Shown piece by piece: positions 7,524-29,740 of a stretch of 32,000 nt of DNA. The notes under the pieces were generated by a model, which was not told the origin of the DNA, made no database searches, and was given only the letters and a program-made list of their open reading frames with translations. This DNA is from Deltaproteobacteria bacterium (GTDB lineage Bacteria > Desulfobacterota > Binatia > Binatales > Binataceae), in assembly GCA_019237115.1 (NCBI GenBank), contig JAFAHS010000399.1:52018-84017 (forward strand), in the 5' to 3' direction. The position numbers and the translations under genes were made by a program. Every line of letters begins with the position of its first letter. Position 1 is the first letter of the stretch.

Positions 7524-10265
7524 CTAGTGGTTCAGCTGGGCGGCCGGCTGCCCCAGCTCTTGTCCCAGCGCCTGCATCTCGGCGCCGAACGCGGCCCAGT
7601 TCCCCGCCTTCAAAGCATCCATGGCACGATTGTAGTGCTGCGAAGCAGATTGGAGATCGCGACCCGCCGGCACTCCCGGCACCGCACCGGGCGCCGCGGT
7701 CTTCGCGAGCACCGGCGCCGCAGGCGCGGGCCCGGCGATAAACAGCGCCTGCAGGGTAGCGTCGAGCGTCTCGCCCATTACCACGCGATCGCTGTAAGAC
7801 GCGATCACTCGCTGCAATTCGGGAAGTTGTCCGTTCTCGGCGCGAATGTAGAGCGGCTCGACATACAGCAGCGAGTCCTGGATCGGAATGACAATCAGGT
7901 TTCCGAACACCACCTTGGAACCCATCTGGTTCCACAGCGACAACTGCCGTGAGATTTCCGGATTCTGGTTGATGCGCGCCTGGATCTGATATGGCCCGTA
8001 AAACAATCGATCCTTGGAAAATGAGTATTCGAACAGATGGCCGTAGTCGGCCCCGTCGCAGCGCGCTGCCAGCCACGAGATCATATTGTCACGCCCCTGC
8101 GGCACCATCGGCAGCATCAGGATGTATTCGGCGGTGGTTTCTCTCGGCAGCCGCATGATTACGTAGTAGGGCTGCATCGCGATGATCTGGTCGCCGTAGT
8201 TCTCGCGCGGAAACCCCCACAGATCCTCGCGGTTGTAGAACACCTGGGGGTCGGTCATGTGGTAGGTGCGATAGATGTCCGCCTGGATCAGAAACAGATC
8301 TTCCGGATAGCGGATGTGCAGGCGCAGGTCGCCGGGCATCTGCGACATGGGCTTGAACAGGGTTGGGAAAATCCGCTCCCAGGTCTGAATCACCGGATCC
8401 TCGGGGTCGGCCACGTAAAATTCGGTGGCGCCGGTGTATGCGTCGACCACCACCTTCACCGAGTTACGGATGTAGTTGATCTGATCGGCGTTGCGCTGGG
8501 AGTAAGGATAATGATCGCTGGTCGTGTAGGTGTCGACGATCCAGGCGATGCGCCCGTCGTGAATGACTGGGTACGGATCCCGGTCGAGCACCAGGAACGG
8601 CGCGATATACGAGATGCGCTGGGTGAGGTTGCGCCGGAACATGATCCTGCTCTTCGGCACGATGTTTTCCGTCACCAGCAGGTTGATGTCCTTGTAGAAG
8701 ATGCTGAACAGCAGGCGTCTTAGGATTCCCGATACCCCCACCCCGCCCTCGCCCTGGTAGAAGCTGAAGACATTTTCCGCGCCCTTCGGAAAGTTGAATT
8801 CCGGGGTCGCCGCGTTGACGATCGCGTAGTTGTCCGGTTCTTCGCCGAAATATATCCCCGGCTGATCGATCTTGAAGCCAACGCTGGAGACCGGCGGGAT
8901 GTCCTTGATGTAAAAGATCGGCAGTCCTTCGGAGTCTTTGTCGTTCACCGGGCCCATCGCGAGCCCCACCCCATGGGTGAATTTTAGGTGCTGATTGACC
9001 CAGGTTTGCGCGCTCTCGGGGAGCTGGTCGATGTTCATCTCGCGCGCCGAGAGCATGACCTCCGTGTAGTTGCCGTTTATCGTGTAGCGATCGATATCGA
9101 CGTCCTTGAAGTCGTAGTACAGGCGGATTTCCTGCAGTTGCCGATAGGTCGCAATCAGCGGTCGCGGATCCCACAGACGAATATTCTTGATGGTGGGCGC
9201 GTCCTGCTCGACACTCGCCATGGTGAGGGTTCCCAGCCCCCCAAACTGCTTCACGTCCACTCCGCCGAGCTTGTAGGCGCGACGCGTCATCGCGATGTTG
9301 CGCTCGATGTAGGGGCGCTCGATACGCAGTTCGTCAGGCTTGACCCACAATCGCTCGATGACCGGCTGCGCAAAATTCAGCAGGAGTGAAGGTCCGAACG
9401 AGATGATCGCCGCGACCACCAGTCGGGCCAGTCCGCGCTCGGTCAAGTTGGCAAAACAAACCACCGCGGCGAGCAGCGAGAACACGACCAGCAGCCACAG
9501 TCCGGGCTGCCACAAAATTGCGTCCACGTAGCGGAGGCCGAAAACCACCCCATTGGTGTGCAGCAGGAGATTGAAGCGCGCCAGCCAGAACCCGAAAGCG
9601 CGCTGGACGAAGAACAGTCCCAGCAGGATCGAGGCGTGCGCGGCTACCGCGGGCGCTATTCGGGGCGGGGTCTCCCTGAAATCAAGCGCTCCGCGCGCCC
9701 AGTAGACAGCCGCTGCGACCGCCCCGGCCAGGAAAATGACCAGCAGGAATGCGTCCCGCAACTCTTCAAGCAGCGGCAGCGCGAAGACGTAGAATCCGAC
9801 GTCGTGGCCAAACGCGCTTTCCTTCACGCCGAAAGGAACGTGATAGAGCGCCTTCAGATAGACGTCCCAGCTTACGGCTTCGCCCTGCGCCACGAAGATC
9901 GCGAGTACCGCGGAGGCCACGACGACGATCACCCGCCACGGCACCCGGTCGCCCAGCGTGCGGATAAGCTCCGGCAGATTTACCTCGGCGCCCTCGCCGG
10001 GTCGCCGAACTACCCGCAGGCGCTCGCGATCCCGGCTTAAGCCGACGGCCGCCAGTCCGCTGGCCACCATCGCGGCGAACGCGAACAGCCAGACCGCCGC
10101 AAAGATAGCGACTTCCGCCTTGACGGTCGTGGCAAAGACGCTTCCATAGCCGAGTGAGCGAAACCACAGCAGATCGACAAAGAACTGGTCGGTAATCGAG
10201 AGGAGGATGCCGCCCACCAGGACGACGACCGCCACGAGGCCCAGCACGATTGTCCGTGGTCGCAT
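7524..10265 (-). CDS. UPF0182 family large membrane protein
   Basis: 913 aa. About 7 N-terminal TM helices are followed by a large soluble region and an Ala/Pro-rich linker. The N-terminal FFVDLLWFRSLGY..VF motif and overall architecture match my recollection of UPF0182 (COG1615). Confidence 0.8.
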   Translation of the reverse strand: MRPRTIVLGLVAVVVLVGGILLSITDQFFVDLLWFRSLGYGSVFATTVKAEVAIFAAVWLFAFAAMVASGLAAVGLSRDRERLRVVRRPGEGAEVNLPELIRTLGDRVPWRVIVVVASAVLAIFVAQGEAVSWDVYLKALYHVPFGVKESAFGHDVGFYVFALPLLEELRDAFLLVIFLAGAVAAAVYWARGALDFRETPPRIAPAVAAHASILLGLFFVQRAFGFWLARFNLLLHTNGVVFGLRYVDAILWQPGLWLLVVFSLLAAVVCFANLTERGLARLVVAAIISFGPSLLLNFAQPVIERLWVKPDELRIERPYIERNIAMTRRAYKLGGVDVKQFGGLGTLTMASVEQDAPTIKNIRLWDPRPLIATYRQLQEIRLYYDFKDVDIDRYTINGNYTEVMLSAREMNIDQLPESAQTWVNQHLKFTHGVGLAMGPVNDKDSEGLPIFYIKDIPPVSSVGFKIDQPGIYFGEEPDNYAIVNAATPEFNFPKGAENVFSFYQGEGGVGVSGILRRLLFSIFYKDINLLVTENIVPKSRIMFRRNLTQRISYIAPFLVLDRDPYPVIHDGRIAWIVDTYTTSDHYPYSQRNADQINYIRNSVKVVVDAYTGATEFYVADPEDPVIQTWERIFPTLFKPMSQMPGDLRLHIRYPEDLFLIQADIYRTYHMTDPQVFYNREDLWGFPRENYGDQIIAMQPYYVIMRLPRETTAEYILMLPMVPQGRDNMISWLAARCDGADYGHLFEYSFSKDRLFYGPYQIQARINQNPEISRQLSLWNQMGSKVVFGNLIVIPIQDSLLYVEPLYIRAENGQLPELQRVIASYSDRVVMGETLDATLQALFIAGPAPAAPVLAKTAAPGAVPGVPAGRDLQSASQHYNRAMDALKAGNWAAFGAEMQALGQELGQPAAQLNH

Positions 10266-10274
10266 CAGGGTGAG

Positions 10275-10589
10275 CTACTGTCCGCGTGCGATCCTGCTCA
10301 CATGTTCGCGCACGACCTCGGGCGGACTGAGCCAGACCAGGATCTTGAACGCGACCACTCCGACCACGAGCCAGCCGATTTCGCCCAGGATGGGAACCAG
10401 GTCCAGCTCAATCGCCGGCGGCGACACCATGAGGAGTAACGCGAGCACCGGCACCAGCTTTGCCAGCAGCGGGACCCGCGGATCCTTCATCAGCCGCCAG
10501 AAGACCCGCACGAACTGCGGAAGGTACCCGACCAGCCTGCTCAGTTGAAGCGGCGGCAGAAAGTGCATGCGCAGGAATTGCCAGAACAT
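10275..10589 (-). CDS. Small membrane protein, DUF1232 (YkvA)-like
   Basis: 104 aa. MKDPRVPLLAKLVPVLALLLMVSPPAIELDLVPILGEIGWLVV loosely resembles the DUF1232 core (P..K......Y..sP.DliPD.iP.lG..DD). GGAAG lies 6 nt upstream of the ATG. Its stop is 9 nt before the UPF0182 start. Confidence 0.5.
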   Translation of the reverse strand: MFWQFLRMHFLPPLQLSRLVGYLPQFVRVFWRLMKDPRVPLLAKLVPVLALLLMVSPPAIELDLVPILGEIGWLVVGVVAFKILVWLSPPEVVREHVSRIARGQ

Positions 10590-10702
10590 CAGAGACTTCC
10601 CGGTAAAGCTAATCTAGCACACGAGCCGCGGGATGTTGCCATGCTTAAGGACGGCGGTTTGTCCTGGCTCGTGATAGGCTCATAGGGGAAGGAGAGCGCG
10701 GA

Positions 10703-12397
10703 TTGAAACGACGCATGGCGCTGGGCGACTTCCTGGTCGCTTACCTTCGTAAAATCGGGGTTGACCATATTTTCGGGATTCCCGGCGACCTCGCGCTCAA
10801 GCTGTTCTTTGCGCTGGGCCGCCAACACGGGATGCGGATCATCACCCTGTCGCACGAGCCGGGGGTCGGGTTTGCCGCCGACGGCTACGCGCGCGCGACC
10901 GGAAAGATCGGGGTGGCCTGCGTGACCTACGGCGCCGGGGGTCACAACATGGTCAACCCGGTGGCCGGCTCGTTCTCCGAACGGGTCCCGATTCTGGTTT
11001 TCTCGGGCGGCCCCGGAGAAGAGGAACGCAAACTCGGGACTCTCATTCACCACCAGGCCCGCGAGATCGAATCGCAGCACCGCATTTTCCAGGAAGTGAC
11101 CTGCGCGTCGCGGGTCCTGACCGATCCGCGGCGCGCCGCGCTCGAGCTGCACGAGGTAGTCAACGCGATCTGGACGGAGCAGCGTCCCGGCTATGTCGAG
11201 ATTCATCGCGACATGGTCGATCAGATCATCGAGGTGCCCGACGAGCTGATCGACTGGGACGGACATTTGCGCTCGCGCGAATCGGACGCGCGCAAGGTCA
11301 GGGAGGCGGCGCGCGAAACCGCGGCGATGTTCGGCGAGAGCCGGCATCCGATTACCATCGCGGGCATCGAGATTCATCGCTACAAGGCGTCCCGTGAACT
11401 TATCGAGCTGGCCGAGAAAATGGGCGCCCCGGTCTGCACCACTGTGCTCGGCAAGGGCGCCTTTCCGATGGACCATCCGCTTTACCTGGGCGTTCACATC
11501 GGGCCGATCAGCCCGCCTCCGATCGTGGCGCGGATGGACGAGGCCGATTTCGTCCTGAACCTCGGCTGCCTCAAGACCGACATGAATTTTGGCAACCGCC
11601 CGCCGCGGGTCATTCAGGGCAAGACCGTCTGGGCGGTCGACCGGCGCGTCGATGTCAAGTACCACACCTATACGGAGGTGGGGGTGCGCGACTTCGTGCG
11701 GGCCCTGCTGAAGGAGAATCTCCCGCACCATCGCGAAGCGGTAAGTTACGCCGACAATTTGCGCGATGTGCCGGCGCGGGACGATCAACAGGTTCGGGTG
11801 GGGCAGATCCTGCTGGCGGTGAACGAGTTTCTCGCCGATCACCGCCATTACATGGTGGTCACCGAATCGGGCGACATGCTGTTTGGCGGACTCGACGTGC
11901 GGGTGCCGCACGACGGGACCTATCTGGCGCAGGGGTTCTACGCCTCCATGGGTTTCGCGGTTCCCGCCGCGCTGGGTGCCCAGCTCGGATCCGGGTTGCG
12001 TCCGCTGATTCTGTGTGGCGACGGCGGCTTTCAGATGACCGGGCCCGAGATTTCGCACGCCGCGAGGCTGGGACTCAATCCGATCGTCCTGCTGATTAAC
12101 AACGGGGGATGGGGAATCTTCCGGCCGGTGGTCGAACGCCGCGAGCTGCTCGAGATCCCGCCCTGGCCCTATGCCAATCTGGCGCGCGACTGGGGCGGCG
12201 CCGGCTTCGAGGCCAACACCCTGTCGCAGCTGCGCCGCACCTTGACCGCGGCTGACAAGACGGAGAGCTTCGTGATCATCGACGTTCGAGTGGACCGCGA
12301 CGATCTCTCCCCGGTTACCGTCAAGTACATCAAAGCCGCCGCCAAACGTTCGCAGGCACCACGCCCGCCCAACGCGACCAAGGGTGCAGGCCAGTGA
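10703..12397 (+). CDS. Thiamine-diphosphate-dependent 2-oxoacid decarboxylase (PDC/indolepyruvate/phenylpyruvate decarboxylase family)
   Basis: 564 aa. The N-terminal PYR domain reads IFGIPGD...HEPGVGFAADGYARATGK...VTYGAGGHNMVNPVAGSFSERVPILVFSGGPG. An HH dyad (LIHHQ) and PGYVEIHRD match the PDC pattern. The ThDP motif is GDGGFQMT...NNGGWG. GGAAGGAGAG lies just upstream of TTG 10703; ATG 10715 is an alternative start. Confidence 0.85.
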   Translation: MKRRMALGDFLVAYLRKIGVDHIFGIPGDLALKLFFALGRQHGMRIITLSHEPGVGFAADGYARATGKIGVACVTYGAGGHNMVNPVAGSFSERVPILVFSGGPGEEERKLGTLIHHQAREIESQHRIFQEVTCASRVLTDPRRAALELHEVVNAIWTEQRPGYVEIHRDMVDQIIEVPDELIDWDGHLRSRESDARKVREAARETAAMFGESRHPITIAGIEIHRYKASRELIELAEKMGAPVCTTVLGKGAFPMDHPLYLGVHIGPISPPPIVARMDEADFVLNLGCLKTDMNFGNRPPRVIQGKTVWAVDRRVDVKYHTYTEVGVRDFVRALLKENLPHHREAVSYADNLRDVPARDDQQVRVGQILLAVNEFLADHRHYMVVTESGDMLFGGLDVRVPHDGTYLAQGFYASMGFAVPAALGAQLGSGLRPLILCGDGGFQMTGPEISHAARLGLNPIVLLINNGGWGIFRPVVERRELLEIPPWPYANLARDWGGAGFEANTLSQLRRTLTAADKTESFVIIDVRVDRDDLSPVTVKYIKAAAKRSQAPRPPNATKGAGQ

Positions 12398-13998
12398 GCG
12401 GAACACGAACGCGTAATTTCGACTGGGCGGTGCCGGAACATTTCAACTTTGGCGCCACCATCGATCACTACGCGGAAGATCCTCACCGGGTTGCCCTGCT
12501 GTGGGAGGACCAGGAGGGCCGGCGCGCCCGGCTGACCTTTGCCGATCTACGCGCCCAGTCCAATCGCATCGCCAACGTGCTGCAAGGGGTCGGCCTTCGG
12601 CGCGGCGATGCGGTCCTGCTGGTCCTGCCGCGGATCTCGCTGTGGCAGGCGGCATATATCGGCGCGCTCAAGGCCGGCGCCCTGGTGATCCCGTGCACCT
12701 CGATGCTGCGTGAAAAAGATCTGGTCTATCGAGCGAACCACTCTGGCGCGCGGGCAATAATCGCCGGCGTGGAAAGTGCGGCGATGGTCGGAGAACTGCG
12801 CAATCAGTGTCCCACCCTCGTTCACTACCTGATCGCCGGCAGCGAGCGCACCGGGTGGCTGGGATTGCCGGGCCTGATGCAGTCCGCGTCGCCGACCTAT
12901 CATGCGGTCAGAACGCGATCCGACGAACCCGCGATTTGCTACTACACTTCCGGCACCACCACGGAACCCAAAGGGGTTCTGCACAGTCACGCCTACACCT
13001 GGAGTCATCAATACACCGGCAGGGACTGGCTCGATGTCAAGCCGGGGGACCTGCACTGGACTACTTCCGATACGGGGTGGGCCAAGGCCGCCTATGGCGT
13101 CTTGTTCGGTCCGTGGATGAACGGCGTGACAACCTTCATGTACAACGGCCGCTTCGAACCAAAAAAAGAGCTCGAGTTGCTGAGCCGTTACCGGATAACG
13201 AGCTTCTGCGCTCCGCCCACCGAGTACCGGATGCTCATCAAGGAGGATTTGAAGCAGCAGCAATTTCCCGCGCTGCGCGCCTGCACCGGCGCCGGTGAGC
13301 CGCTCAACCCCGAGGTCATCGAAGTATGGAAAAAAGAACTGGGGTTGACGATACGCGATGGCTACGGACAGACCGAAACCATCATTCTGGTCGCGAATCT
13401 GCCCGACACGAAGACCAGGCCTGGCTCAATGGGTCTGCCGTTTGCCGGCCAGGAGGTCTGCGTGGTCGACGATGGACTCCACGAAGCCGCGGTGGACCAG
13501 GTCGGTCAGATCGCGGTCCGGGTCAAACCCAACCGTCCGCCTTCGTTGTTCCTCGAGTATTGGAAAAATACCGAAGAAACCGCCGCGGTGTTCCAGGGCG
13601 ACTACTACCTTACCGGCGACCATGCCACGCGGGACAGCGACGGTTACCTGTGGTTCGTGGGGCGCGCCGATGACGTGATCATTTCGGCCGGGTATCGAAT
13701 CGGTCCGTTCGAAGTGGAGAGCGCCCTGCTGGAGCATGCGCTGGTTCTCGAGTCCGCGGTGGTTGCCAGCCCGGATCCCGACCGTGGCGCGATCGTCAAA
13801 GCGTTCGTTCGCCTGAAACCCGGGACGCCGCGAGACGCCGCCCTGGTCCGGGAGTTGCAGGAACACGTAAAGCGCACGACGGCACCATATAAGTACCCGC
13901 GCGAGATCGAGTTCATGGATGAACTACCCAAGACCGTGAGCGGCAAGATTCGCAGGGTCGAGCTTCGCAAACGCGAAGAAGTACGCAAGCGTCACTAG
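12394..13998 (+). CDS. AMP-forming acyl-CoA synthetase (medium-chain/ACSM-like adenylate-forming ligase)
   Basis: 534 aa. Adenylation motifs are present: YYTSGTTTEPKG, DGYGQTET, YLTGDHATRDSDGYLWFVGRADDVI and PKTVSGKIRR. The GTG start overlaps the upstream stop (GTGA at 12394-12397). Confidence 0.9.
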   Translation: MSGTRTRNFDWAVPEHFNFGATIDHYAEDPHRVALLWEDQEGRRARLTFADLRAQSNRIANVLQGVGLRRGDAVLLVLPRISLWQAAYIGALKAGALVIPCTSMLREKDLVYRANHSGARAIIAGVESAAMVGELRNQCPTLVHYLIAGSERTGWLGLPGLMQSASPTYHAVRTRSDEPAICYYTSGTTTEPKGVLHSHAYTWSHQYTGRDWLDVKPGDLHWTTSDTGWAKAAYGVLFGPWMNGVTTFMYNGRFEPKKELELLSRYRITSFCAPPTEYRMLIKEDLKQQQFPALRACTGAGEPLNPEVIEVWKKELGLTIRDGYGQTETIILVANLPDTKTRPGSMGLPFAGQEVCVVDDGLHEAAVDQVGQIAVRVKPNRPPSLFLEYWKNTEETAAVFQGDYYLTGDHATRDSDGYLWFVGRADDVIISAGYRIGPFEVESALLEHALVLESAVVASPDPDRGAIVKAFVRLKPGTPRDAALVRELQEHVKRTTAPYKYPREIEFMDELPKTVSGKIRRVELRKREEVRKRH

Positions 13999-14142
13999 AA
14001 TCCACTTTTCGTCACCGGCGACGCACCAACCTTCTTAGATGAGGGCGTTCGCTTGCCGCGCGTGCTCGGCTCATCCAGCGTCAGACGACTCATAACAACC
14101 ATTGGTCAATTCGCCGTTCATATGATGCTCTCTGAATATTCA

Positions 14143-14187
14143 AGAGACCGTCAAATAACACTATCGCTCGCTTCACCGACAGTCTCT
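14143..14187. promoter_or_regulatory. Inverted repeat in the leader of the GT4 operon (possible operator or RNA hairpin)
   Basis: AGAGACCGTC (14143-14152) and GACAGTCTCT (14178-14187) are 9/10 complementary, with a 25-nt spacer. The repeat sits in a 244-nt stretch that is visibly less GC-rich. Its right arm ends 56 nt upstream of the GTG at 14243. Confidence 0.3.
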
Positions 14188-14242
14188 AAATTTGTAACCA
14201 CGCGCTTCCCGCAGGCCCCGGTTCGGTTGATGAGGAAACGGC

Positions 14243-15484
14243 GTGGAAGAAGAGAACCGGCAGAACGAGGATAGCCCCGCACCCGACCCACGACGCCACA
14301 TTTGTGTCGTCAGCGAAACCTATTCTCCGCAAGTCAACGGCGTTGCGCTTACTCTCGGGCATCTCGTCAAGGGATTGCAGGCGCTGGGGCACCGGGTCTC
14401 AATCGTACGTCCCCGACAACACAGGTCCGATGGCTGCGGCCTTGACTTAAGCGTCACGGTGGTCGCCGGCCTGCCGCTGCCCGGATACAAGGGATTGCAA
14501 TTCGGCCTGCCTGCCGGAGCGCTGTTGCAGCAGGCGTGGATGCGCAATCGCCCCGACGTAGTCTACGTTGCCACCGAAGGTCCGCTGGGTTGGTCGGCGG
14601 TTGGAGTCGCGCGCCGCCTCGCGATTCCGGTGTTCAGTGGCTTTCACACCAATTTCCACAGCTATTCTCGCTACTACCGGGTTGGATATCTACACAGCGT
14701 AGTGCTCCGCTACTTGCGCTGGTTTCACAACCGGACCCGGGGAACCCTGGTCCCCAGTTCGGATCTCCGCGACCGTCTGCAAACCCTCGGATTCAAAAAA
14801 GTCTTGTGTCTCGGCCGGGGAGTTGACAGTCAGCTGTTCGATCCTGCGCGACGGTGCGGCATCCTGCGCCGTCAGTGGGGTCTGGGAGCTGACGACCTGG
14901 CGGTCGTCTATGTCGGGCGGATAGCCGGCGAGAAGAACCTGAGCCTCGCCCTGGCGGCGTATGGGGCGATTAAACAAACCGTCAATTCCGCGCGGTTTAT
15001 AGTCGTCGGCGACGGCCCCTTGCGCAGCTCACTGCAGGCTCAACACCCGGACTTCATCTTCACCGGAATGCAGCTGGGCCCCCAGCTCGCCACGCACTAC
15101 GCTTCCGCCGACCTGTTTCTGTTTCCGAGCGAGACCGAGACCTTCGGCAATGTCGTATTGGAAGCGATGGCCAGCGGGCTCGGGGTGATTGCCTACGACT
15201 ATGCCGCCGCAAGAAGTCACATCGCCAATGGAGAGAGCGGAATCCTGGTTCCGCTCGGGGATTCCAAGGCGTTTGTGGCGGCCGCCTTAAAGCTCGCCTC
15301 CCAACCCGAGGAACTCAAGCGAGTCCGCCGCCAAGCCCGCGACTATTCCCGCTCGATCGGATGGCCACGGGTGGTCGAGCGCTTTGCGGCTCTCCTTAAT
15401 GGAAACGATGATCAAGTCCGCGGCCCCCTCCGCTCATTGGTGGGAGGCCAAAAGCTGGCTACGGCAGCACGGGGGAGAATCTAA
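14243..15484 (+). CDS. Glycosyltransferase family 4, SQD2/SqdX/Agt-like (probable lipid glycosyltransferase)
   Basis: 413 aa. The N-terminus reads ICVVSETYSPQVNGVA..L..L...GH.V.IVRP. GVDSQLFDP, VYVGRIAGEKN and the E-x7-E block FPSETETFGNVVLEAMASG are present. GAGGAA lies 5 nt upstream of the GTG. Confidence 0.85.
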   Translation: MEEENRQNEDSPAPDPRRHICVVSETYSPQVNGVALTLGHLVKGLQALGHRVSIVRPRQHRSDGCGLDLSVTVVAGLPLPGYKGLQFGLPAGALLQQAWMRNRPDVVYVATEGPLGWSAVGVARRLAIPVFSGFHTNFHSYSRYYRVGYLHSVVLRYLRWFHNRTRGTLVPSSDLRDRLQTLGFKKVLCLGRGVDSQLFDPARRCGILRRQWGLGADDLAVVYVGRIAGEKNLSLALAAYGAIKQTVNSARFIVVGDGPLRSSLQAQHPDFIFTGMQLGPQLATHYASADLFLFPSETETFGNVVLEAMASGLGVIAYDYAAARSHIANGESGILVPLGDSKAFVAAALKLASQPEELKRVRRQARDYSRSIGWPRVVERFAALLNGNDDQVRGPLRSLVGGQKLATAARGRI

Positions 15485-15486
15485 CG

Positions 15487-17757
15487 ATGTTGACTCCTGG
15501 AGCTCTTGGGAATTGGGCTGAGTGGTTCGGTTCGAGCACCGGCGCGTGGATTGCCGCGACTTTGCTCTTGCTCGGGTTGGCCGCCCTGCTGGGACGGCGA
15601 GTTATCGCGACCGTCCTCACCCTGCGGGCTTCGGCATTTACCCCGCGCATGTCGAGGCTATTGGCGCTCTGGCTGCGGCCGACCAACCACTCGCCTGCCG
15701 AATTCCTTCGCGCCGATGGAGCCGATGAACGGTGGGCGGAGATTCGCAAGCAGGCTATCAACCGCCTCGCCGGCTTCTTTCAGACCCGGTACGCAAAGTC
15801 GATCGCGTGGGGCAACGGGATACGCCAGAGCTTCTCGGATCTGCGCTTCACCGATGCCAATCGCGTCCCCTTTCCCTTCGCGCAATTCATGCGCGAACAC
15901 TTCAGCGTCTGCTCGGTGGTTACGGCCTCCGCCGGACCCCAACTTCGCGATCTCGATGGTCATTGGACTCTCGACGTGAGCGGCTCCTACGGACTCAACG
16001 TGGCTGGATTCGACCACTACAAGGAATGGATGCAGAGGGGGCTTGACCGGGTGAAGGAGCTTGGCCCGGTGCTGGGTCCCCTCCATCCCATCGTCGCCGA
16101 CAACATACGAATCCTCAAATCGATCTCGAAGCTCGATGAAGTGTCGTTCCACATGAGCGGCACCGAGGCGGTGATGGCCGCCATCCGGCTGGCCCGATTC
16201 AATACCCGCCGCAAGCTGATCGTCTGTTTCTCGGGCGCTTATCACGGATGGTGGGATGGCGTGCAGCCCGGGTTGGGCAGCGAACGCACCATCGACGACT
16301 GCCTGACGCTGAAGGAATTGAACCCGGCCTCGCTGGACGTTCTGCGCTGGCGGGCGCACGAGATCGCCGCAATCGTGGTAAACCCCGTTCAATCGTTTCA
16401 TCCCAACTCGCCCCCGCCGAGCGACGCCATCCTGCTGACCAGCGGCGTCCGCAACGCGACCGACTCCACGGCTGCTTACCGGGAATGGCTTGGTAAGCTG
16501 CGCGCCGTGTGCAGCGAACACGAGATTCCGCTCATCTTCGACGAGGTATTCAGCGGCTTTCGCCTGGCCCCCGGCGGAGCGCAGGAGTACTTCGGCGTGC
16601 AAGCGGACATGGTCGTGTACGGGAAAACGGTGGCCGGTGGAATGCCCATCGGAGTGGTCTGCGGCCGCAAAGAACTGATGGCGCGCTTTGATCCCCACCA
16701 TCCGATGCGCATCGCGTATGTGATCGGAACTTTTTCGGCACACCCCGTGGTGATGGGGGCGATGAATGAGTTTTTGAATTGGCTGGTGCAGCCGTCCAGC
16801 ACTACAGAATATGCGACGGCGAATGAGAGGTGTGCCGCGTGGGCGCGCGAGACCAACCAGTTGCTCCTGGATTCCTCACTGCCGGTGCGAGTGATGCAGC
16901 TGGCCACGATATGGACGGTGCTGTTCAAGGAGCCGGGTCGATACAACTGGCTGCTCCAATACTACCTTCGAGCCGAGGGTATCACGCTCAGTTGGGTGGG
17001 AACCGGTCGCTGTATGACCAGTCTGGATTTTACCGAGGAAGATTATCGCAGCCTGCGATCCAAGCTGGTGAGTGCGGTACGCCAGATGAAAAACGACGCC
17101 TGGTGGCTAAGCGAACAACAACAACCACAACGGGATAAACTGATGCGAACACATCTGTTTCGGGAACTCGCCGGAAGTATTGTCAGGGTGCCGAAGCCGT
17201 TGACCAGCTTTTACACCGAGATAATGCATCGCAAACATGACGACCACCTCGCGTCACATAGCAACGTGGTCAACCAGGTCCTCCACCTGCTGAGTTCGAG
17301 CACCTTCATCTTTTGCTATGTGCTGATCTTTTTCGACTTGACCCGCGCGGTATGTCTGGGACTGGCAGCGCTGTTCGTTCGCCAGTTCGGACACGCAGTG
17401 CTGGAGCCGCCCTGCCACGACAAGGAGCAGCTGCTGCTCGGATTCAACACCCGCGATAAGACGCTGATCGTTGCGGGTTACGGTCTGATTCTCGCCGCCG
17501 TGTTGATGAAGGTCCGTCCCGGTTCTTGGGGGGCCGTCGCCGGCGTGGCGCCGACGCTGGCCCATTGGTGGTTCTTCATGACGCTGGCAGTGGTACTCGG
17601 GCACGTGGCGTTTCTTGCCTGGAAGCACACCTTGAGAGACTCCCTAATCTGGTTTGTAAAACTGCTTACCGATCCTTTTACTGACATCGCGGCGTACTAC
17701 GGGAGCCCCTACCGGATTGTTGCGAATCCTCAGGGCCAGAAGCGCGAGCTCGTATAG
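15487..17757 (+). CDS. Membrane-anchored class-III aminotransferase (glutamate-1-semialdehyde aminomutase-like) fused to a C-terminal Mpo1/DUF962-like 4-TM domain
   Basis: 756 aa. There is an N-terminal TM helix (WIAATLLLLGLAALLG). The PLP fold-type-I class III core reads FHMSGTEAVMAAIRLAR, IFDEVFSGFRLAPGG and YGKTVAGGMPIGVVCG, with the Lys codon at 16624-16626. A QQQPQ linker follows. The C-terminal hydrophobic domain carries H-x4-N-x3-H (HSNVVNQVLH, 17257-17286) and FGHAVLE (17386-17406). The ATG lies 2 nt after the GT4 stop, with GGGAGA upstream. Confidence 0.8.
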   Translation: MLTPGALGNWAEWFGSSTGAWIAATLLLLGLAALLGRRVIATVLTLRASAFTPRMSRLLALWLRPTNHSPAEFLRADGADERWAEIRKQAINRLAGFFQTRYAKSIAWGNGIRQSFSDLRFTDANRVPFPFAQFMREHFSVCSVVTASAGPQLRDLDGHWTLDVSGSYGLNVAGFDHYKEWMQRGLDRVKELGPVLGPLHPIVADNIRILKSISKLDEVSFHMSGTEAVMAAIRLARFNTRRKLIVCFSGAYHGWWDGVQPGLGSERTIDDCLTLKELNPASLDVLRWRAHEIAAIVVNPVQSFHPNSPPPSDAILLTSGVRNATDSTAAYREWLGKLRAVCSEHEIPLIFDEVFSGFRLAPGGAQEYFGVQADMVVYGKTVAGGMPIGVVCGRKELMARFDPHHPMRIAYVIGTFSAHPVVMGAMNEFLNWLVQPSSTTEYATANERCAAWARETNQLLLDSSLPVRVMQLATIWTVLFKEPGRYNWLLQYYLRAEGITLSWVGTGRCMTSLDFTEEDYRSLRSKLVSAVRQMKNDAWWLSEQQQPQRDKLMRTHLFRELAGSIVRVPKPLTSFYTEIMHRKHDDHLASHSNVVNQVLHLLSSSTFIFCYVLIFFDLTRAVCLGLAALFVRQFGHAVLEPPCHDKEQLLLGFNTRDKTLIVAGYGLILAAVLMKVRPGSWGAVAGVAPTLAHWWFFMTLAVVLGHVAFLAWKHTLRDSLIWFVKLLTDPFTDIAAYYGSPYRIVANPQGQKRELV

Positions 17758-17759
17758 AC

Positions 17760-18275
17760 TTGTTGTACCTTGCTGCGGCCATTCTACTGGCGTTCGAGCG
17801 GGTAGCCTACGTATGGGTTTGGCGCTATCCGCGATCGTTCAGCGCACTTTGCGGGTTCTTTTCGGAAGAGCCGCCGGTGGTCATCCTGGAAAGAATGTTC
17901 AACTGCTTCAAGGTAATCCAGATCTCGGTGTTTCTGGCCTGGTGCTATTTCCATCCGAACCAACCACTGTGGCTGTCCGGAAACCTCGTTCCACTGACCG
18001 CGGGCGCAACCCTGATGATCGTAGGGCAAGTACTCAATTTTAGTGTTTTTTACCGCCTGGGGTCGGTCGGGGTCTTTTACGGGAACCGCTTCGGCTACGA
18101 AGTCCCCTGGTGCACGGAATTTCCCTTTTCGCTAATGGACCACCCGCAATACGTAGGAGCCCTGCTTTCGATTTGGGGCCTGTTCCTCGCTCTGCAGTTT
18201 CCGCGTCCCGATTGGTATGCGATCCCCGCGCTTGAAAGCGTGTATTACGCGCTGGGAGCCTATCTGGAACGCTGA
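17760..18275 (+). CDS. Phospholipid N-methyltransferase family protein (PEMT/Opi3-type, PF04191-like)
   Basis: 171 aa and 4 TM. GQVLNFSVFYRLGSVGVFYGNRFGYEVPWCTEFPFSLMDHPQYVGALLSIWG parallels the PEMT core (LG..G...GD.FG.....FPF...DNPMY.G). The TTG start lies 2 nt after the upstream stop. Confidence 0.75.
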   Translation: MLYLAAAILLAFERVAYVWVWRYPRSFSALCGFFSEEPPVVILERMFNCFKVIQISVFLAWCYFHPNQPLWLSGNLVPLTAGATLMIVGQVLNFSVFYRLGSVGVFYGNRFGYEVPWCTEFPFSLMDHPQYVGALLSIWGLFLALQFPRPDWYAIPALESVYYALGAYLER

Positions 18276-18309: not shown

Positions 18310-18867
18310 TCAGCGGCTGGTAAACGAATTCTTCAGCACGTCGACCTTACCGGCAAATTCCTCGAGGTCGACCTCGGTAGTCTCCAGCAGTCGGGCGACC
18401 ATTCCCCAGAATCCGATCGACATCACTAATTCCACGATCTCGGTCGTACCCATGTGTTTCTGGAGAGCCTCCATGGTTGCGCGCCCGCCCTTTACGTTGC
18501 GCGCGACTTCATCGGTGAACTTGAGCACCAGGCGATCGATCTCACCGAAGCACCGGGCCCCTTCCCAGTTTTCAATTGCATCGACTTGTTCATCGGTCAC
18601 GCCCGCAGCCTTGGCAATCGGCACGTGCTGGGTCCATTCATAAACCGATTTGCTCACCTTCGCGGTGCGCAATATAGCGAGTTCGCGCAGCCGCGCATCG
18701 AGCTTGGATCGAGTCAGCAGCGAGTTCCCCAACATCGAGAACGGATAGAATGCAGCGTCCGAGTTCGCGATCATGCGCGCAACGTTCATCTTTACGCGCC
18801 CGCGATTCAGAATCTCGCGCGTCTTTTCCGGTACCTTGCTTTCGTCGGCATAGGGTAACAACGCCAT
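18310..18867 (-). CDS. Carboxymuconolactone decarboxylase (AhpD-like) family protein
   Basis: CMD-family pattern: RLRELAILRTAKVSKSVYEWTQHVPIAKAAGVTDEQV...DRLVLKFTDEV. Start set at ATG 18867, which has GGAGGA 8 nt upstream. The track ORF begins 6 codons earlier, at 18885. Confidence 0.85.
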   Translation of the reverse strand: MALLPYADESKVPEKTREILNRGRVKMNVARMIANSDAAFYPFSMLGNSLLTRSKLDARLRELAILRTAKVSKSVYEWTQHVPIAKAAGVTDEQVDAIENWEGARCFGEIDRLVLKFTDEVARNVKGGRATMEALQKHMGTTEIVELVMSIGFWGMVARLLETTEVDLEEFAGKVDVLKNSFTSR

Positions 18868-20384: not shown

Positions 20385-22691
20385 TCAGCCTTTGCCGGCA
20401 TCCGCGAAGGAGGTGACCGGGCGGGCTTCATCATGCGCTCTCACGGCGGGCAGCCCACGGCGGCCGAGGACCAGGAGACCGGCCGCGACCCACAGTACCA
20501 ACCCCGGCAGCAACGGGTATACGTGCCATCGATTTGCCGCAATGTTCACTTCTGCAAGGTCGTTGCGGCGGTAGAGTTTCACCGGCAAGGACTCGTAAAT
20601 CGTTTGATAACCCGGCGGGGGATCACCCGTTCCGGGGGGCGGGCTAACTTGTTCCAGAATGTACGGCGGGGCCGCTGCCAGCGCTCGCCCGAGATCATTC
20701 ATGCCGCGGACCCGGCTGCCACCCTCCCACAAATTGTTCGGATCGTGTTGGTCCTCGATCGGGTCGTCGTTGATTCCGGTAAGCACCGGGAACTCGAGCA
20801 AAGCCCACCACTGCGAGACATTCGTGCATAGATGGAGGATATGCGTAGCAGGCGTAATTCGGCCGGCAGCGACCTCGTCGTCGAGAACCTTGATCAGGTT
20901 CATATCGGTCGGACCGAAAAGCCACCGCCGATCGGTATGACCCGTCCAGTAACCCAACGAGGCGGTATCGAGGTTAAACGCCCAGTGCTCGCTGATTGAA
21001 TGTTCAAGGGAATCGTAGTCGAGAGGATGTGGGGCCTGGCGCCACGGGTAGATCAGCAAGGCAAGCAGGATGAAAAGAGTCCCTGGACGCGACCAGCGAT
21101 CGTAAGCCAGCGCAAACAGGTATCCCGCCGGCAAGGTCAGAAAAAAAGGACACCAGTAGTCCCACAGCTTGATCCGGATGTCCGATGTCATCATGCCGCC
21201 AGCAGGGGTATGGGAGAGCGTCCGCAGGACCGGATCGAAATACTCGCCAGCAATGCCCAACAGCAGTGCTACCGCCACCAGGCCCGAGTAGCGGGTTTGG
21301 TCCGCCGGCCACTGAACCACGAACGCCGCAATCAGTCCTGCGAAGCACAACAGCGTGAGCAGTGGCAAATTGTCCGCAACCTGTTGATAAAGAGTGAATG
21401 CATTTGCGGCGTGACGATAGAGAACCGCAAGGATGAAGAACGCGATCAGCCCGCGGTTGAGCACGGCAACCAGCCGTCGATCGCGCAAGGCGGCGTCAGG
21501 AGGCATCCATCGCGCGGCCAGGCAAATTGCTGCCACGCCCGCCAATTGCCCGGCCGGGATGATCGGATACGGTGCCCGATGCCCAAGTGCGATAAGATAC
21601 TCGGGCAGCGCGACCAGGGCTGCGCCCGCCAGGGCAACGACCCCGGCGGCAAAGCGCCCAGGGTCGGACTCCGCGAGCCACAGAATCACGCCAACTCCCG
21701 CCACGATCATCGCCAAAGCACCGTCGATTGCATGCGACGCGATACTACAACCCAACATCAAAGCGCCGGCGGCAAACAGCAGCCGACTGCCGCGACTCAT
21801 AAAGAACGCAAGACCCAACGCGACAAGCGCAAAATCGACCGCCGTACCGCGCATGCCCTGGGCCCGGCGAAAGAGGCAGGTAAAGAACAGGAGGAGGCCC
21901 GCGACTCCCCCCGCAGTATCATCGAACACTGTCTTTCCGAGGCGCCAGGTCGCAAAGATCATCAGTGCGGCCATCGGCAGCATCGCTGCGCTCTCCGCAA
22001 GTGCCGCCGGATGAGTATGACTTCCCATTGCCAGAGCCGAGTAGAACAGTTCGAGCGCGGGCGTCTGAGCGTAGGGTCCCCAGCATCCGTAAGGGTCGTT
22101 GTTGAACGGGTCATAGATGCCGAACGTCAGGATCCGCTGTGCGGAAGATGGATATGAAAGCACATCCATAAACGGCACCACTGGAGAGCCAAGTTGTAGG
22201 GGCAAGTAGGAAACCGCGAGCAAGAGGACCGCAAAAGCCGCAAGCTTCTGGCCCGAAGACGGGGTCTGCAACTTCCGGTGGCGGGGCGGGTTCCGCCAAA
22301 GCCAGGCGGTCCCCAAGGCGAGAAGTCCCCACAAGGTCGCCGAATAGAAAAGCCGGATGGGTCCCAACAGGTTGCCGAGCAGAAATGCGAGGATCCAGAC
22401 ACCACCAGCGCCAACCAGAATAGCATCGAACTGCTCCAGTTCGGGCTCAATCCGCAGTGCGAGTCCGCCCAGGACCAGGGTGGCCCAACCCCAGAACGCC
22501 CATACCTTGAGAGCGGCCCACAAAGTCTCGCCGAGCAGCGGACGAATCCCCTCCCATGCCGCCGACCACGACAGATGGTATGGGAATTGGCGCAGACGAT
22601 AGATGGCGAGCAGCGTGACGATCGCGACACCCGCCCACATCACCAGCCATGCGCGTGCCTGTCCGCGCCTGTCTACCATTCCTTGCGCCAC
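20385..22691 (-). CDS. Uncharacterised polytopic membrane protein (about 14+ TM, C-terminal extracytoplasmic domain; GT-C-like architecture is only a guess)
   Basis: 768-aa ORF, strongly hydrophobic through about residue 540. A roughly 180-aa soluble region and a final TM helix follow. The antisense ORF (21000..22157 +) is Arg/Gln-rich low complexity. I recognise no family motif. The start is GTG 22691 or ATG 22679. Confidence 0.65.
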   Translation of the reverse strand: MAQGMVDRRGQARAWLVMWAGVAIVTLLAIYRLRQFPYHLSWSAAWEGIRPLLGETLWAALKVWAFWGWATLVLGGLALRIEPELEQFDAILVGAGGVWILAFLLGNLLGPIRLFYSATLWGLLALGTAWLWRNPPRHRKLQTPSSGQKLAAFAVLLLAVSYLPLQLGSPVVPFMDVLSYPSSAQRILTFGIYDPFNNDPYGCWGPYAQTPALELFYSALAMGSHTHPAALAESAAMLPMAALMIFATWRLGKTVFDDTAGGVAGLLLFFTCLFRRAQGMRGTAVDFALVALGLAFFMSRGSRLLFAAGALMLGCSIASHAIDGALAMIVAGVGVILWLAESDPGRFAAGVVALAGAALVALPEYLIALGHRAPYPIIPAGQLAGVAAICLAARWMPPDAALRDRRLVAVLNRGLIAFFILAVLYRHAANAFTLYQQVADNLPLLTLLCFAGLIAAFVVQWPADQTRYSGLVAVALLLGIAGEYFDPVLRTLSHTPAGGMMTSDIRIKLWDYWCPFFLTLPAGYLFALAYDRWSRPGTLFILLALLIYPWRQAPHPLDYDSLEHSISEHWAFNLDTASLGYWTGHTDRRWLFGPTDMNLIKVLDDEVAAGRITPATHILHLCTNVSQWWALLEFPVLTGINDDPIEDQHDPNNLWEGGSRVRGMNDLGRALAAAPPYILEQVSPPPGTGDPPPGYQTIYESLPVKLYRRNDLAEVNIAANRWHVYPLLPGLVLWVAAGLLVLGRRGLPAVRAHDEARPVTSFADAGKG

Positions 22692-28381: not shown

Positions 28382-29740
28382 TCACGCGGCGCGCCAGTCC
28401 AGGTGATCGCGAACGTGCGCGAAGACCTCGTCGAGGATCGCCACCCCGGTCTCGGCCTGTTCTTCGCTGATGACCAGCGGCGGATTGATCCGGACGCGCG
28501 GAAAATAGGTCATCGTGATGACTCCGCGGCGTAGTGCTTCGAGGAAAATCTGCTCGGTCACCCTGCGGCTTAGGGGTTCGCGCGTCTTGAGATCGCGCAC
28601 CAGATCGATTCCAATCAGCAGCCCTTTCCCGCGCACGTCGCCGATGAACTCGTACTTCTCTTTGAGCGTGTTCAGGCGGTGCAGCATCTGGCCACCGATT
28701 TTGCGGGAGTTGTCAACGAGCTTTTCATCCTTGATGATCTTGATGGTTTCGGCAACCGCCGCCGCGGCAAGTGGATTCCCACCGTAGCTCGAGGACGACG
28801 CGCTGGGCTTGCCGAACGGCTCCGACTTGCCGAGCTGCTCGCTCATCAGCACCGCGGACACCGGAAAGCCCGCGCCCATTCCCTTGCCCAGGGTAACGAT
28901 ATCGGGCTCTACCCCGGTATGATCAATGCCCCACATCTTGCCGGTGCGACCAAAGCCGGTAATCATTTCGTCGGCGATGAGCAGGGCGCCGTTTTCCTTT
29001 GCGACCGACTTGATCGCGGGCAGCCAATCATCCGGCGGGATTACGTTGCCGGCGGTCCCCTGCATCGGCTCGACCAGCACGGCCGCGACTTCTCCTGCCG
29101 AGGAATTCTTGATTTGGTCGCGCGCAAACTCGACGCACAGCAGACCACACGAGGGGTGCGTCAACTTGAATGGGCAGCGATAGCAGTCCGCATAGGGGAC
29201 CTGGTAGCGTCCGCCAGGCAGTGGTCCATAACCCTTCTTCGACTCGTCACCAATCAGGCCAAGTACCCCACCGGTCTTGCCGTGAAATCCTCCCCAGAAG
29301 CTTACGACCTCGTGCTTCTTGGTCGCGGAACGGGCCAGGCGCAAGCCCGCCTCTACCGCCTCGGCCCCGCCGCTATACAGATGCGAACGATTCAAACCCT
29401 TCGGGGCAACCTCCGACAGCAGCCTGAAGGCCTCGCTGCGTTCCCTGGTGGCAAAGGTTCCAACCGACAGGCGTTCGGCCTGTTTGCTGATGACTTTCGC
29501 CATCCGCGGATGTCCATGGCCGAGGCTTGCCACCGCGATGCCTGCGTAGAGATCGATGTAGGTATTGCCGTCGGCGTCGGTGAGGGTGGCGCCTTCGCCA
29601 TGGTCCAACGCGATGCCTGCCAATTGCGAGACCCGTTGGCGCCCGGATGCAACGTACTTCTGTTCTTCGTCGTAGATCTTGCGGGATTCAGGTCCTGGAA
29701 TAGCGGTCTTGATGGAGTGCAGTTTAACCTTCGGTGTCAT
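28382..29740 (-). CDS. Class-III (GabT/omega-type) PLP-dependent aminotransferase
   Basis: 452 aa. IPGPES...DADGNTYIDLYAGIAVASLGHGHP, LIADEMITGFGRTGKMWG and the Lys block TLGKGMGAGFPVSA are present. Confidence 0.9.
   Translation of the reverse strand: MTPKVKLHSIKTAIPGPESRKIYDEEQKYVASGRQRVSQLAGIALDHGEGATLTDADGNTYIDLYAGIAVASLGHGHPRMAKVISKQAERLSVGTFATRERSEAFRLLSEVAPKGLNRSHLYSGGAEAVEAGLRLARSATKKHEVVSFWGGFHGKTGGVLGLIGDESKKGYGPLPGGRYQVPYADCYRCPFKLTHPSCGLLCVEFARDQIKNSSAGEVAAVLVEPMQGTAGNVIPPDDWLPAIKSVAKENGALLIADEMITGFGRTGKMWGIDHTGVEPDIVTLGKGMGAGFPVSAVLMSEQLGKSEPFGKPSASSSSYGGNPLAAAAVAETIKIIKDEKLVDNSRKIGGQMLHRLNTLKEKYEFIGDVRGKGLLIGIDLVRDLKTREPLSRRVTEQIFLEALRRGVITMTYFPRVRINPPLVISEEQAETGVAILDEVFAHVRDHLDWRAA

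Follow-up and report, generated by a model that had tools for sequence, protein, structure and literature searches.

A three-gene operon in Binatia encoding a glycosyltransferase, a membrane aminotransferase-Mpo1-like fusion and a PEMT-type methyltransferase: a candidate pathway for a phosphorus-free amino glycolipid

Organisation of the operon

The window analysed here is a stretch of 32,000 nucleotides from a Deltaproteobacteria bacterium of the class Binatia (assembly GCA_019237115.1, contig JAFAHS010000399.1, forward-strand positions 52,018 to 84,017), and its subject is a + strand operon of three genes in which a first reading of the letters (the original prediction) had seen an undescribed lipid head-group pathway. 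The first gene (14243-15484; GTG start, TAA stop) encodes a 413-aa glycosyltransferase of family GT4, the second (15487-17757; ATG start, TAG stop) a 756-aa fusion protein made up of an N-terminal transmembrane (TM) anchor, a class-III aminotransferase (AMT) of the type found in polyketide synthases (PKS) and an Mpo1-like membrane domain, and the third (17760-18275; TTG start, TGA stop) a 171-aa PEMT-type methyltransferase. Re-reading of the coordinates gave the same gene boundaries and the same stop-to-start spacing of 2 nt at both junctions as had been claimed, and the translational coupling of the genes is tight. The leader or promoter region of 244 nt in front of the operon (13999-14242, +) had been described as less GC-rich, and its GC content of 52.9%, against 61.6% for the window, indeed places it among the lowest 1% of 244-nt windows; the convergent gene said to close the operon is a CMD-family gene whose end lies at 18310.

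A Shine-Dalgarno sequence, GAGGA (14232-14236, +), was read from the sequence 6 nt 5' of the GTG start of the GT4 gene, and the k-mers TGATGAGG and GGTGAGGG were found again at the Shine-Dalgarno position in related loci. The ATG of the fusion gene at 15487 is preceded by GGGGGAG. A consensus scan for promoters returned 0 sites of the sigma-70 type and terminator-like sites only at chance level, and a scan of the whole window, leader included, at the Rfam gathering thresholds matched no riboswitch or other RNA family.

Proteins encoded by the operon

None of the three proteins falls under a curated NCBIfam model, and the family assignments of the original prediction were all upheld by the domain matches and motifs described below. 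The first protein belongs to the GT-B, retaining family GT4, as indicated by PF13439 and PF00534 (E 1e-27 to 1e-31), also by PF13692, and by an E-x7-E motif (ETFGNVVLE). A hydropathy scan found no TM helix in it. Its best NCBIfam match is GpgS, the N-acetylglucosaminyl-phosphatidylglycerol (GlcNAc-PG) synthase that uses phosphatidylglycerol (PG) as acceptor (142 bits over the full length, cutoff 480), followed by the monoglucosyl-diacylglycerol synthase Mgs, whose acceptor is diacylglycerol (DAG; 98 bits, cutoff 400). Source annotations are generic only, that of JGI being 'glycosyltransferase involved in cell wall biosynthesis'. From these matches it is reasonable to predict a lipid-type glycosyltransferase, the narrower SQD2/SqdX-like label of the original prediction being tentative.

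A Kyte-Doolittle scan of the fusion protein identified an N-terminal TM helix (15538-15618, +; residues 18-44) followed by RR, and in the AlphaFold2 (AF2) model the helix of residues 17-48 has a predicted local distance difference test score (pLDDT) of about 85. Under the positive-inside rule the RR pair predicts an N-out orientation with the aminotransferase in the cytoplasm. The aminotransferase domain, dependent on pyridoxal 5'-phosphate (PLP), extends over 15799-17088 (+; residues 105-534) and matches PF00202 (Aminotran_3) at residues 141-530 (E 6e-32, 111 bits against a cutoff of 30.5). Its PLP motifs comprise Lys380 in YGK, the predicted catalytic Schiff-base lysine, SGTEA at 224-228 and D352, the Asp of FDEV. 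Comparison of 69 family members revealed that S224, G225, E227, D352 and K380 are invariant, and together with the PF00202 match these PLP residues bear out the class-III assignment. Length (about 740-790 aa) and architecture of the fusion are kept in the 457 species genomes in which it was found.

The nearest solved structure is the aminotransferase domain of the mycosubtilin synthase MycA (6kfm/6kfu; E 3e-50, 174 bits, residues 105-534), and the alignment takes in an N-terminal 'DLRF..AN.R' extension that HemL does not have. Other relatives in the Protein Data Bank (PDB) score lower: glutamate-1-semialdehyde (GSA) aminomutases at most 125 bits, beta-transaminases 96 and sugar C-6' aminotransferases 71. 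PKS-embedded AMT domains were also among the relatives of the fusion in the representative library of a 1.8-billion-protein search. All PLP motifs and the N-terminal extension are shared with MycA AMT over residues 105-534, but the latter is a soluble megasynthase domain acting on a beta-ketoacyl substrate tethered to acyl carrier protein (ACP), whereas the fusion is TM-anchored, has an oxygenase-like membrane partner and has no carrier protein nearby.

JGI labels the whole fusion family glutamate-1-semialdehyde 2,1-aminomutase, and hemL (TIGR00713) is indeed the best NCBIfam model, at 172 bits against a cutoff of 527. The HemL identity was rejected, given a score far under the cutoff and a membrane protein of 756 aa as compared with a soluble enzyme of about 430 aa; judged by these comparisons, the public annotation 'glutamate-1-semialdehyde aminomutase' is wrong.

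The C-terminal region of the fusion, about 190 residues with four hydrophobic helices, contains the Mpo1-like/DUF962 domain (17194-17697, +; residues 570-737), for which four TM helices and two interfacial helices are predicted. In the window protein alone PF06127 reaches 17.8-18 bits and stays under the gathering cutoff of 24. The C-terminal domains of 13 of 15 diverse members nevertheless match PF06127 (E < 0.01; best E 7.6e-10), and a full-length homologue of 35% identity and the same architecture scores 38.6 bits, so the Mpo1-like call of the original prediction stands at family level. No variation occurs, even in very distant low-GC homologues of the Binatia proteins, at residues D586, H591, N596, H600, S603, S604, R632, Q633, G635, H636, E640, K658, W722, K725 and D729. 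The AF2 model of the domain alone has a pLDDT of 78, and the PDB comparison yielded no solved structural relative of it. On these family matches the C-terminal domain is read as a divergent but real Mpo1-like/DUF962 domain.

Yeast Mpo1/DUF962 is an Fe(II)-dependent 2-hydroxy fatty acid dioxygenase, and motifs of its H-x4-N-x3-H and Q-x-G-H-x3-E type are invariant in the fusion family. The fusion domain differs from yeast Mpo1 in its divergence (18 bits), in being joined to an aminotransferase and in its glycolipid-gene context, and its substrate is likely to be other than a free 2-hydroxy fatty acid. In the predicted topology the invariant residues lie at the cytoplasmic membrane interface, on the side of the aminotransferase, which argues for a putative catalytic metal site and not for a mere anchor; the putative His-rich Fe(II) site takes in H591, H600 and H636 with D586, N596 and E640, all invariant across phyla.

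The third protein matches PF04191 (E 1.6e-14, 54.7 bits), above the gathering cutoff of 25 and in accordance with the earlier PEMT call, while the ICMT model gave only 15.6 bits (E 0.023). A block, LG..GVFYG..FG...FPFS...PQY.G, is invariant in 19 orthologues and resembles the C-terminal motif of eukaryotic PEMT/Opi3. PDB sequences gave chance-level matches only. Like PEMT/Opi3 and the ornithine-lipid N-methyltransferase OlsG, the protein is a small polytopic enzyme of the PF04191 type, dependent on S-adenosylmethionine (SAM), and OlsG offers a precedent for a non-phospholipid amine as substrate; unlike them it matches, at 171 aa, no curated NCBIfam model, and its gene invariably comes straight after that of the aminotransferase fusion. 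Elsewhere in the PEMT superfamily the methyl group goes to O or S. Its family and its place after the aminotransferase lead us to infer that the protein N-methylates a lipid primary amine.

Distribution and linkage of the genes

Homologues of the fusion protein number in the thousands (about 750-790 aa, 65-95% identity), and among the GTDB species genomes scanned the fusion was present in 457, at 58-79% identity, from Binatia, Nitrospira, Rokubacteria/Methylomirabilota, Vicinamibacterales and other Acidobacteriota, Dormibacterota, Myxococcota, Burkholderiales and Gammaproteobacteria. Neighbourhoods were counted in 80 retrieved loci carrying the fusion. Of these, 74 have a GT4 gene at most 3 kb from the fusion. 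This gene is directly 5' of the fusion on the same strand in Binatia, Rokubacteria and Burkholderiales, where its product is 47-68% identical to the window GT4, and in Nitrospira, Acidobacteriota and gammaproteobacteria a 337-aa type of GT4 (about 33% identical) is found just 3' of the fusion, usually on the opposite strand. PEMT follows 0-90 nt 3' of the fusion in about 40 of the 80 loci, and in the loci without it no substitute methyltransferase was seen.

The linkage across phyla indicates that the trio is not a chance adjacency. Conservation of the whole three-gene linkage, which the original prediction had named as a check, was found for the pair of GT4 and fusion but for PEMT in only about half of the loci, which makes GT4 and the fusion the core and PEMT an optional accessory. 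An optional PEMT fits a primary-amine product that is methylated further in some lineages. The accompanying statement that the combination does not match the established bacterial head-group pathways agrees with the full-text literature searches, which found no characterised orthologous cluster, and with the NCBIfam matches, all of which are far under cutoff.

It might be held that the genes merely lie side by side, the GT4 making monoglycosyldiacylglycerol (MGDG) or glucuronic acid diacylglycerol (GADG), PEMT making phosphatidylcholine (PC) from phosphatidylethanolamine (PE), and the fusion being a housekeeping HemL-like aminotransferase, as the JGI label and the rank of hemL among the NCBIfam models would suggest. 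We consider this extremely improbable, since that model reaches only 172 of the 527 bits demanded and no GSA aminomutase is as close to the fusion as MycA AMT, and since the fusion carries a membrane anchor and a polytopic domain in which a separate set of His, Asp and Glu residues is invariant. Junctions of 2 nt and 4 nt together with linkage across phyla argue instead for one pathway, and PC synthesis under phosphorus limitation would be counter-productive.

A homologue of the fusion was also found in a transcript of Euglena mutabilis (P0122), with 53% identity over the TM and aminotransferase part; its N terminus carries a weak, sub-threshold GT2-like region (PF00535, 22.4 bits against 23.3) and several TM helices. 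P0122 and three further proteins of eukaryote-type or metagenomic origin (P0123, P0125 and P0126), at 51-53% identity over the TM and aminotransferase part, have long N-terminal extensions in place of the Mpo1-like domain, which suggests that the membrane aminotransferase has been recombined with differing partner domains.

In seven gammaproteobacterial loci devoid of PEMT (L066, L071, L072, L074-L076 and L078) a gene for a 250-270-aa protein with a weak HAD-hydrolase signal (PF00702, E 0.003) lies 3' of the fusion, with a spacing of 0-50 nt in most of them and of +557 in L071; it is absent from L070. This HAD-like gene is an uncharacterised alternative accessory gene.

Genes of phosphate starvation in the neighbourhoods

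The commonest additional neighbour, present in about 35 of the 80 loci, encodes a 280-aa LpxH-like metallophosphoesterase (PlcP-like) which falls under the LpxH cutoffs, as a PlcP-type phospholipase C would be expected to do. In Nitrospira the plcP-like gene is directly 5' of the fusion. Contiguous plcP-GT4-fusion-PEMT operons occur in some Binatia and Rokubacteria (junctions of 4 nt and 2 nt in L006), and plcP and GT4 share a strand in L003, L006, L039 and L061. In gammaproteobacteria and Burkholderiales the fusion stands beside BtaA (DUF3419, E 2e-111) and a BtaB-like methyltransferase (9 of 80 loci). The isolate Nitrospira sp. KM1 carries the plcP-like/fusion pair divergent from pstSCAB-phoU, with PsiE and polyphosphate kinase close by and the GT4 gene convergent, and on a 7.9-Mb contig (L083) the GT4-fusion-PEMT operon has a metallophosphoesterase on one side and PhoX on the other, with a porin O/P gene in the vicinity. 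Near Binatia loci there are 'PstB' matches, possibly to generic ABC ATPases, and these were given no weight.

PlcP together with an Agt-type GT4 makes MGDG and GADG under phosphorus stress (PMC4796936; PMC8528852), and the combinations of PlcP with Agt-type GT4 and of PlcP with BtaAB are established phosphate-starvation lipid-remodelling modules (PMC4796936; PMC8528852; B. cenocepacia preprint). The presence of PlcP, BtaAB, Pst and PhoX as Pho-regulon neighbours indicates that the present module is found in neighbourhoods of this kind. PlcP-Agt clusters as found in Sinorhizobium/Agrobacterium, SAR11, Phaeobacter, P. aeruginosa (PA3219-PA3218) and B. cenocepacia (plcP-agt-dagK) have an LpxH-like metallophosphoesterase beside a GT4, often with btaAB and with pst/pho genes near, and the same gene company surrounds the fusion in Nitrospira, Rokubacteria, gammaproteobacteria and some Binatia. 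They differ in having no aminotransferase, Mpo1-like domain or PEMT and in that their products, MGDG and GADG, are nitrogen-free, and the window for its part is without plcP. The module is best placed among the gene clusters for phosphorus-free membrane lipids, and the architecture of its fusion protein is unprecedented.

The proximity of BtaA and BtaB in 9 of 80 loci raises the alternative that a homoserine or betaine lipid is remodelled, diacylglyceryl-homoserine (DGHS) or diacylglyceryl-trimethylhomoserine (DGTS) being converted to a head group of the beta-alanine type, like that of diacylglyceryl-hydroxymethyl-trimethyl-beta-alanine (DGTA), by deamination or aminomutase chemistry and oxidative decarboxylation, with PEMT adding the trimethylammonium. 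In its favour, the aminotransferase lies in the branch of GSA aminomutases and beta-transaminases, and the synthesis of DGTA in heterotrophic bacteria has been stated as unknown (PMC4796936). BtaA is however absent from most loci, the window included, the loci that do have BtaA/BtaB are without PEMT, no carboxylating function is present, and the consistent GT4 partner would go unexplained; we regard this alternative as very improbable.

A further possibility is an envelope glycan or a modification of the lipid A/lipopolysaccharide (LPS) type, a membrane-level analogue of the aminoarabinose chemistry of ArnA/ArnB. GT4 enzymes are common in LPS and exopolysaccharide (EPS) synthesis, the JGI name of the window GT4 refers to cell wall biosynthesis, and genes for a DedA-family protein and a 768-aa polytopic protein lie just 3' of the operon on the other strand. 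Those two genes are however syntenic in the closest relatives only, the conserved neighbourhood contains no Wzx/Wzy, undecaprenyl-phosphate transferases or nucleotide-sugar enzymes, and the recurring partners are the DAG-producing PlcP and the DAG-using BtaA, which renders an envelope glycan improbable.

Two further genes, for a 240-aa alpha/beta hydrolase and a 245-aa secreted tetratricopeptide-repeat (TPR) protein, recur in Nitrospira (L032, L034-L037, L040, L042, L050, L053 and L055, also L081/L082 at 13365-14117) and adjoin the plcP-like, fusion and GT4 genes.

A conserved element upstream of the operon

Within the leader a cis element (14116-14157, +) was identified that consists of four direct-repeat units phased by 11 bp (GTTCAtatgat / GcTCtctgaat / aTTCAagagac / cGTCAaataac) and is placed 104 nt before the GT4 start codon. 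The array upstream of Binatia operons, GTTCAyA-N15-TkTTCAA-N6-GTCAAAC, was found de novo. Its core, TTCAA-N6-GTCAA, occurs 16 times on both strands of the 2.48 Mb of retrieved loci, and 15 of these 16 occurrences are upstream of the operon; of the position weight matrix (PWM) matches of at least 18 bits, all 21 (20 in the loci and the window's own) lie 5' of whichever gene comes first in the operon, which in L003 and L006 is plcP. Direct repeats phased in this way are characteristic of regulators of the OmpR/PhoB type, and by analogy 14116-14157 is a candidate PHO-box-like site for a regulator of this type.

In the divergent pstS/plcP-like intergenic region of Nitrospira sp. KM1 (L082, AP022671.1; 8480-8550 and 8990-9030) 11-bp-phased repeats of the CGTTAC/GTAACG type were observed, e.g. 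ATTACGTCCACGTTACGTCCGCGTTAAC, which differ from the Binatia element and may be the Pho box of Nitrospira.

Proposed pathway

One of the major ways in which microbes respond when phosphorus is scarce is to replace phospholipids by phosphorus-free lipids, for which neutral or anionic glycolipids, betaine lipids and ornithine lipids are known to serve. Our tentative reading, which we hold to be plausible rather than established, is that the operon belongs to the phosphate-starvation lipid-remodelling repertoire and encodes the head-group steps for a membrane glycolipid that bears an amine and is free of phosphorus. That the operon is a lipid head-group pathway, as the original prediction had it, is supported by the family assignments, the operon structure and the linkage across phyla; the lipid product, the site of amination and each chemical step are a proposal drawn from the domains and their context.

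In the first step the GT4 would move a sugar from a UDP-sugar onto DAG, glucuronic acid or glucose being the most plausible by comparison with Agt-type enzymes. The Mpo1-like Fe(II)/O2 domain would then oxidise a sugar hydroxyl of this lipid to a carbonyl at the cytoplasmic membrane face, giving an intermediate of the keto-glucuronosyl-DAG type, and the tethered PLP aminotransferase would turn the carbonyl into a primary amine. The resulting zwitterionic (amino-uronic) or cationic glycolipid might substitute for PE and, where PEMT is present as in the window, could be N-methylated to a head group resembling PC or a betaine lipid. Expression would probably be under a PhoB-type regulator acting at the phased repeats 14116-14157.

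When starved of phosphorus, B. cenocepacia and P. aeruginosa build up a glycolipid that is 2 Da lighter than GADG (PMC8528852 and the B. cenocepacia study). This lipid has been read as ketoglucuronosyl-DAG in B. cenocepacia and named 'UGL' in P. aeruginosa, is made by neither Agt and has no enzyme assigned to it. A keto-uronosyl lipid holds the carbonyl that a lipid aminotransferase would need, and this favours the sugar as the amination site. The sugar is likewise favoured by the Euglena mutabilis homologue, in which the weak GT2-like region stands in place of a separate glycosyltransferase gene, so that glycosyl transfer and amination are again linked. OlsG, which is related to PEMT, N-methylates a lipid amine.

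A chemical precedent at the level of nucleotide sugars may be seen in the route of ArnA/ArnB to aminoarabinose. ArnA and ArnB convert UDP-glucuronic acid (UDP-GlcA) through a UDP-4-keto-pentose to UDP-4-amino-4-deoxy-arabinose (UDP-Ara4N), and GnnA/GnnB are likewise an oxidase-transaminase pair. The logic is the same as that proposed here, in that a sugar hydroxyl is oxidised and then transaminated, but those enzymes are soluble, NAD-dependent and act on nucleotide sugars with a DegT-type aminotransferase, whereas the proposal involves an Fe/O2 membrane domain, a class-III aminotransferase and a finished lipid. The gpgSDF genes of P. aeruginosa, encoding a GlcNAc-PG synthase, a deacetylase and a flippase, also yield an amine-bearing glycosylated lipid (PMC12713373). 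There, unlike in the window operon, the amine comes from a pre-formed amino sugar by deacetylation, and no aminotransferase, oxygenase or methyltransferase takes part.

Several observations weigh against the sugar-based pathway. To our knowledge, the sole known reaction of Mpo1 is the alpha-oxidation of free 2-hydroxy fatty acids and not of sugars. MycA AMT, the nearest solved relative, aminates a beta-keto acyl thioester, and the sugar C-6' aminotransferases score just 71 bits. The best curated match of the GT4, GpgS, has PG as its acceptor. The full-length AF2 model of the fusion is poor (pLDDT 62, predicted TM-score (pTM) 0.49), and at this pLDDT the domain interface is not readable. In the window itself a homologue search for plcP, btaA/B, pst and HAD genes, with Pfam annotation of the remainder, revealed no PlcP, Pst or Pho gene, and three loci with full flanks (L065, L073 and L077) are without a nearby GT4. 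The E. coli Pho box CTGTCAT-N4-CTGTCAT, allowing at most 2 mismatches per half, is absent from 37 operon-upstream regions, the cis element does not fit this consensus, and it was not found 5' of pst genes in the retrieved loci, the pst promoters of the same genomes not having been compared.

The first two of these observations are the substance of a serious rival, amination of an acyl chain or backbone, which we rate as unlikely though as more likely than the betaine-lipid (DGTS-to-DGTA), envelope-glycan and mere-adjacency readings. Here the substrate of the Mpo1-like domain would be a hydroxy fatty acyl or hydroxy-acid moiety, in which a keto or aldehyde group would arise either by oxidation from 3-hydroxy to 3-oxo or, from a 2-hydroxy acid, by oxidative decarboxylation. 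The AMT would give a beta-amino acyl or alkyl-amine lipid for PEMT to methylate, and the GT4 would glycosylate this amino lipid or make ordinary glycolipids in parallel. Such a route would agree with the closeness of MycA AMT, whose 174-bit match includes the N-terminal extension and which aminates a beta-ketoacyl chain, with the PKS-embedded AMT domains that come next among the relatives in the 1.8-billion-protein search, and with a fatty acid as the known Mpo1 substrate (Pfam description of PF06127); fusion of the two domains would, moreover, shield an unstable beta-keto acid. The 80 neighbourhoods, however, show no recurring gene for an acyl carrier protein, a PKS, an acyltransferase (OlsB/OlsA/OlsF) or a fatty-acid hydroxylase. 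The recurring partner is a glycosyltransferase, and the eukaryotic homologue bears the GT2-like region, weak and sub-threshold as it is, at its N terminus.

Two other lipid roles were considered and rejected, a hopanoid role of the HpnO type, as no neighbourhood contains hpn genes, and a role in ornithine lipids, as no OlsB, OlsA or OlsF is nearby. Full-text searches of the accessible literature found no paper that links a class-III aminotransferase or DUF962 to PlcP, Agt or BtaA, nor one that describes a lipid of the proposed kind.

Returning to the amino glycolipid, we put forward as a still more tentative extension that amino-(uronic) glycosyl diacylglycerol and its N-methylated, betaine-like derivative could be a new class of phosphorus-free lipid in many uncultured and a few cultured soil and freshwater bacteria (Binatia, Nitrospira, Rokubacteria/Methylomirabilota, Vicinamibacterales and several Proteobacteria) and apparently some euglenids, built in situ by a bifunctional Mpo1-type oxygenase/PKS-type aminotransferase, with the orphan 'keto-GADG/UGL' lipids as intermediates or relatives. 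If this is true, environmental lipidomics would gain a lipid class and a biomarker, also for nitrifiers such as Nitrospira, the bacterial Mpo1/DUF962 domain would receive its first function, and the head group of a membrane lipid would for the first time be established as the target of an aminotransferase. Cationic or zwitterionic glycolipids bear, in addition, on resistance to cationic antimicrobials. The re-assignment of the fusion would also correct a systematic mis-annotation, in which thousands of proteins are labelled HemL, and with Nitrospira sp. KM1 as a cultured carrier the module is directly testable.

Other genes of the window

The genes flanking the operon (TPP-dependent decarboxylase, MbcS-like synthetase, CMD, DedA and the 768-aa protein) show synteny with the closest relatives only. 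Directly 5' of the operon, and syntenic in close relatives only, is a pair consisting of a gene like those for indolepyruvate/phenylpyruvate decarboxylases dependent on thiamine pyrophosphate (TPP; 10703-12397, +; 400 bits, cutoff 554) and one for an MbcS-like acyl-CoA synthetase (12394-13998, +; 598 bits, cutoff 850), which overlap by 4 nt. A longer antisense ORF of 605 aa (10589-12406) over the decarboxylase-like gene is probably a high-GC artefact.

On the - strand 3' of the operon, the DedA/VTT-family protein (PF09335; 19637-20434) has below-cutoff NCBIfam matches to DedA and UptA, the latter a transporter of undecaprenyl phosphate. Its gene overlaps by about 50 nt with that of the 768-aa polytopic membrane protein (20385-22691, -), which has no match in Pfam, NCBIfam or PDB sequences, and both genes are syntenic with the operon in the closest relatives only (L001, L002 and L018). 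DedA proteins are lipid flippase/scramblase candidates, and a tie to the lipid operon is conceivable but unsupported.

A second class-III aminotransferase is encoded in the window at 28382-29740 (-); this protein of 452 aa (PF00202, 336 bits) is conventional and of soluble size, and its architecture is unrelated to that of the fusion. A UPF0182 family membrane protein of 913 aa (7524-10265, -; PF03699, 924 bits), a family of unassigned function, is encoded further 5' of the operon.

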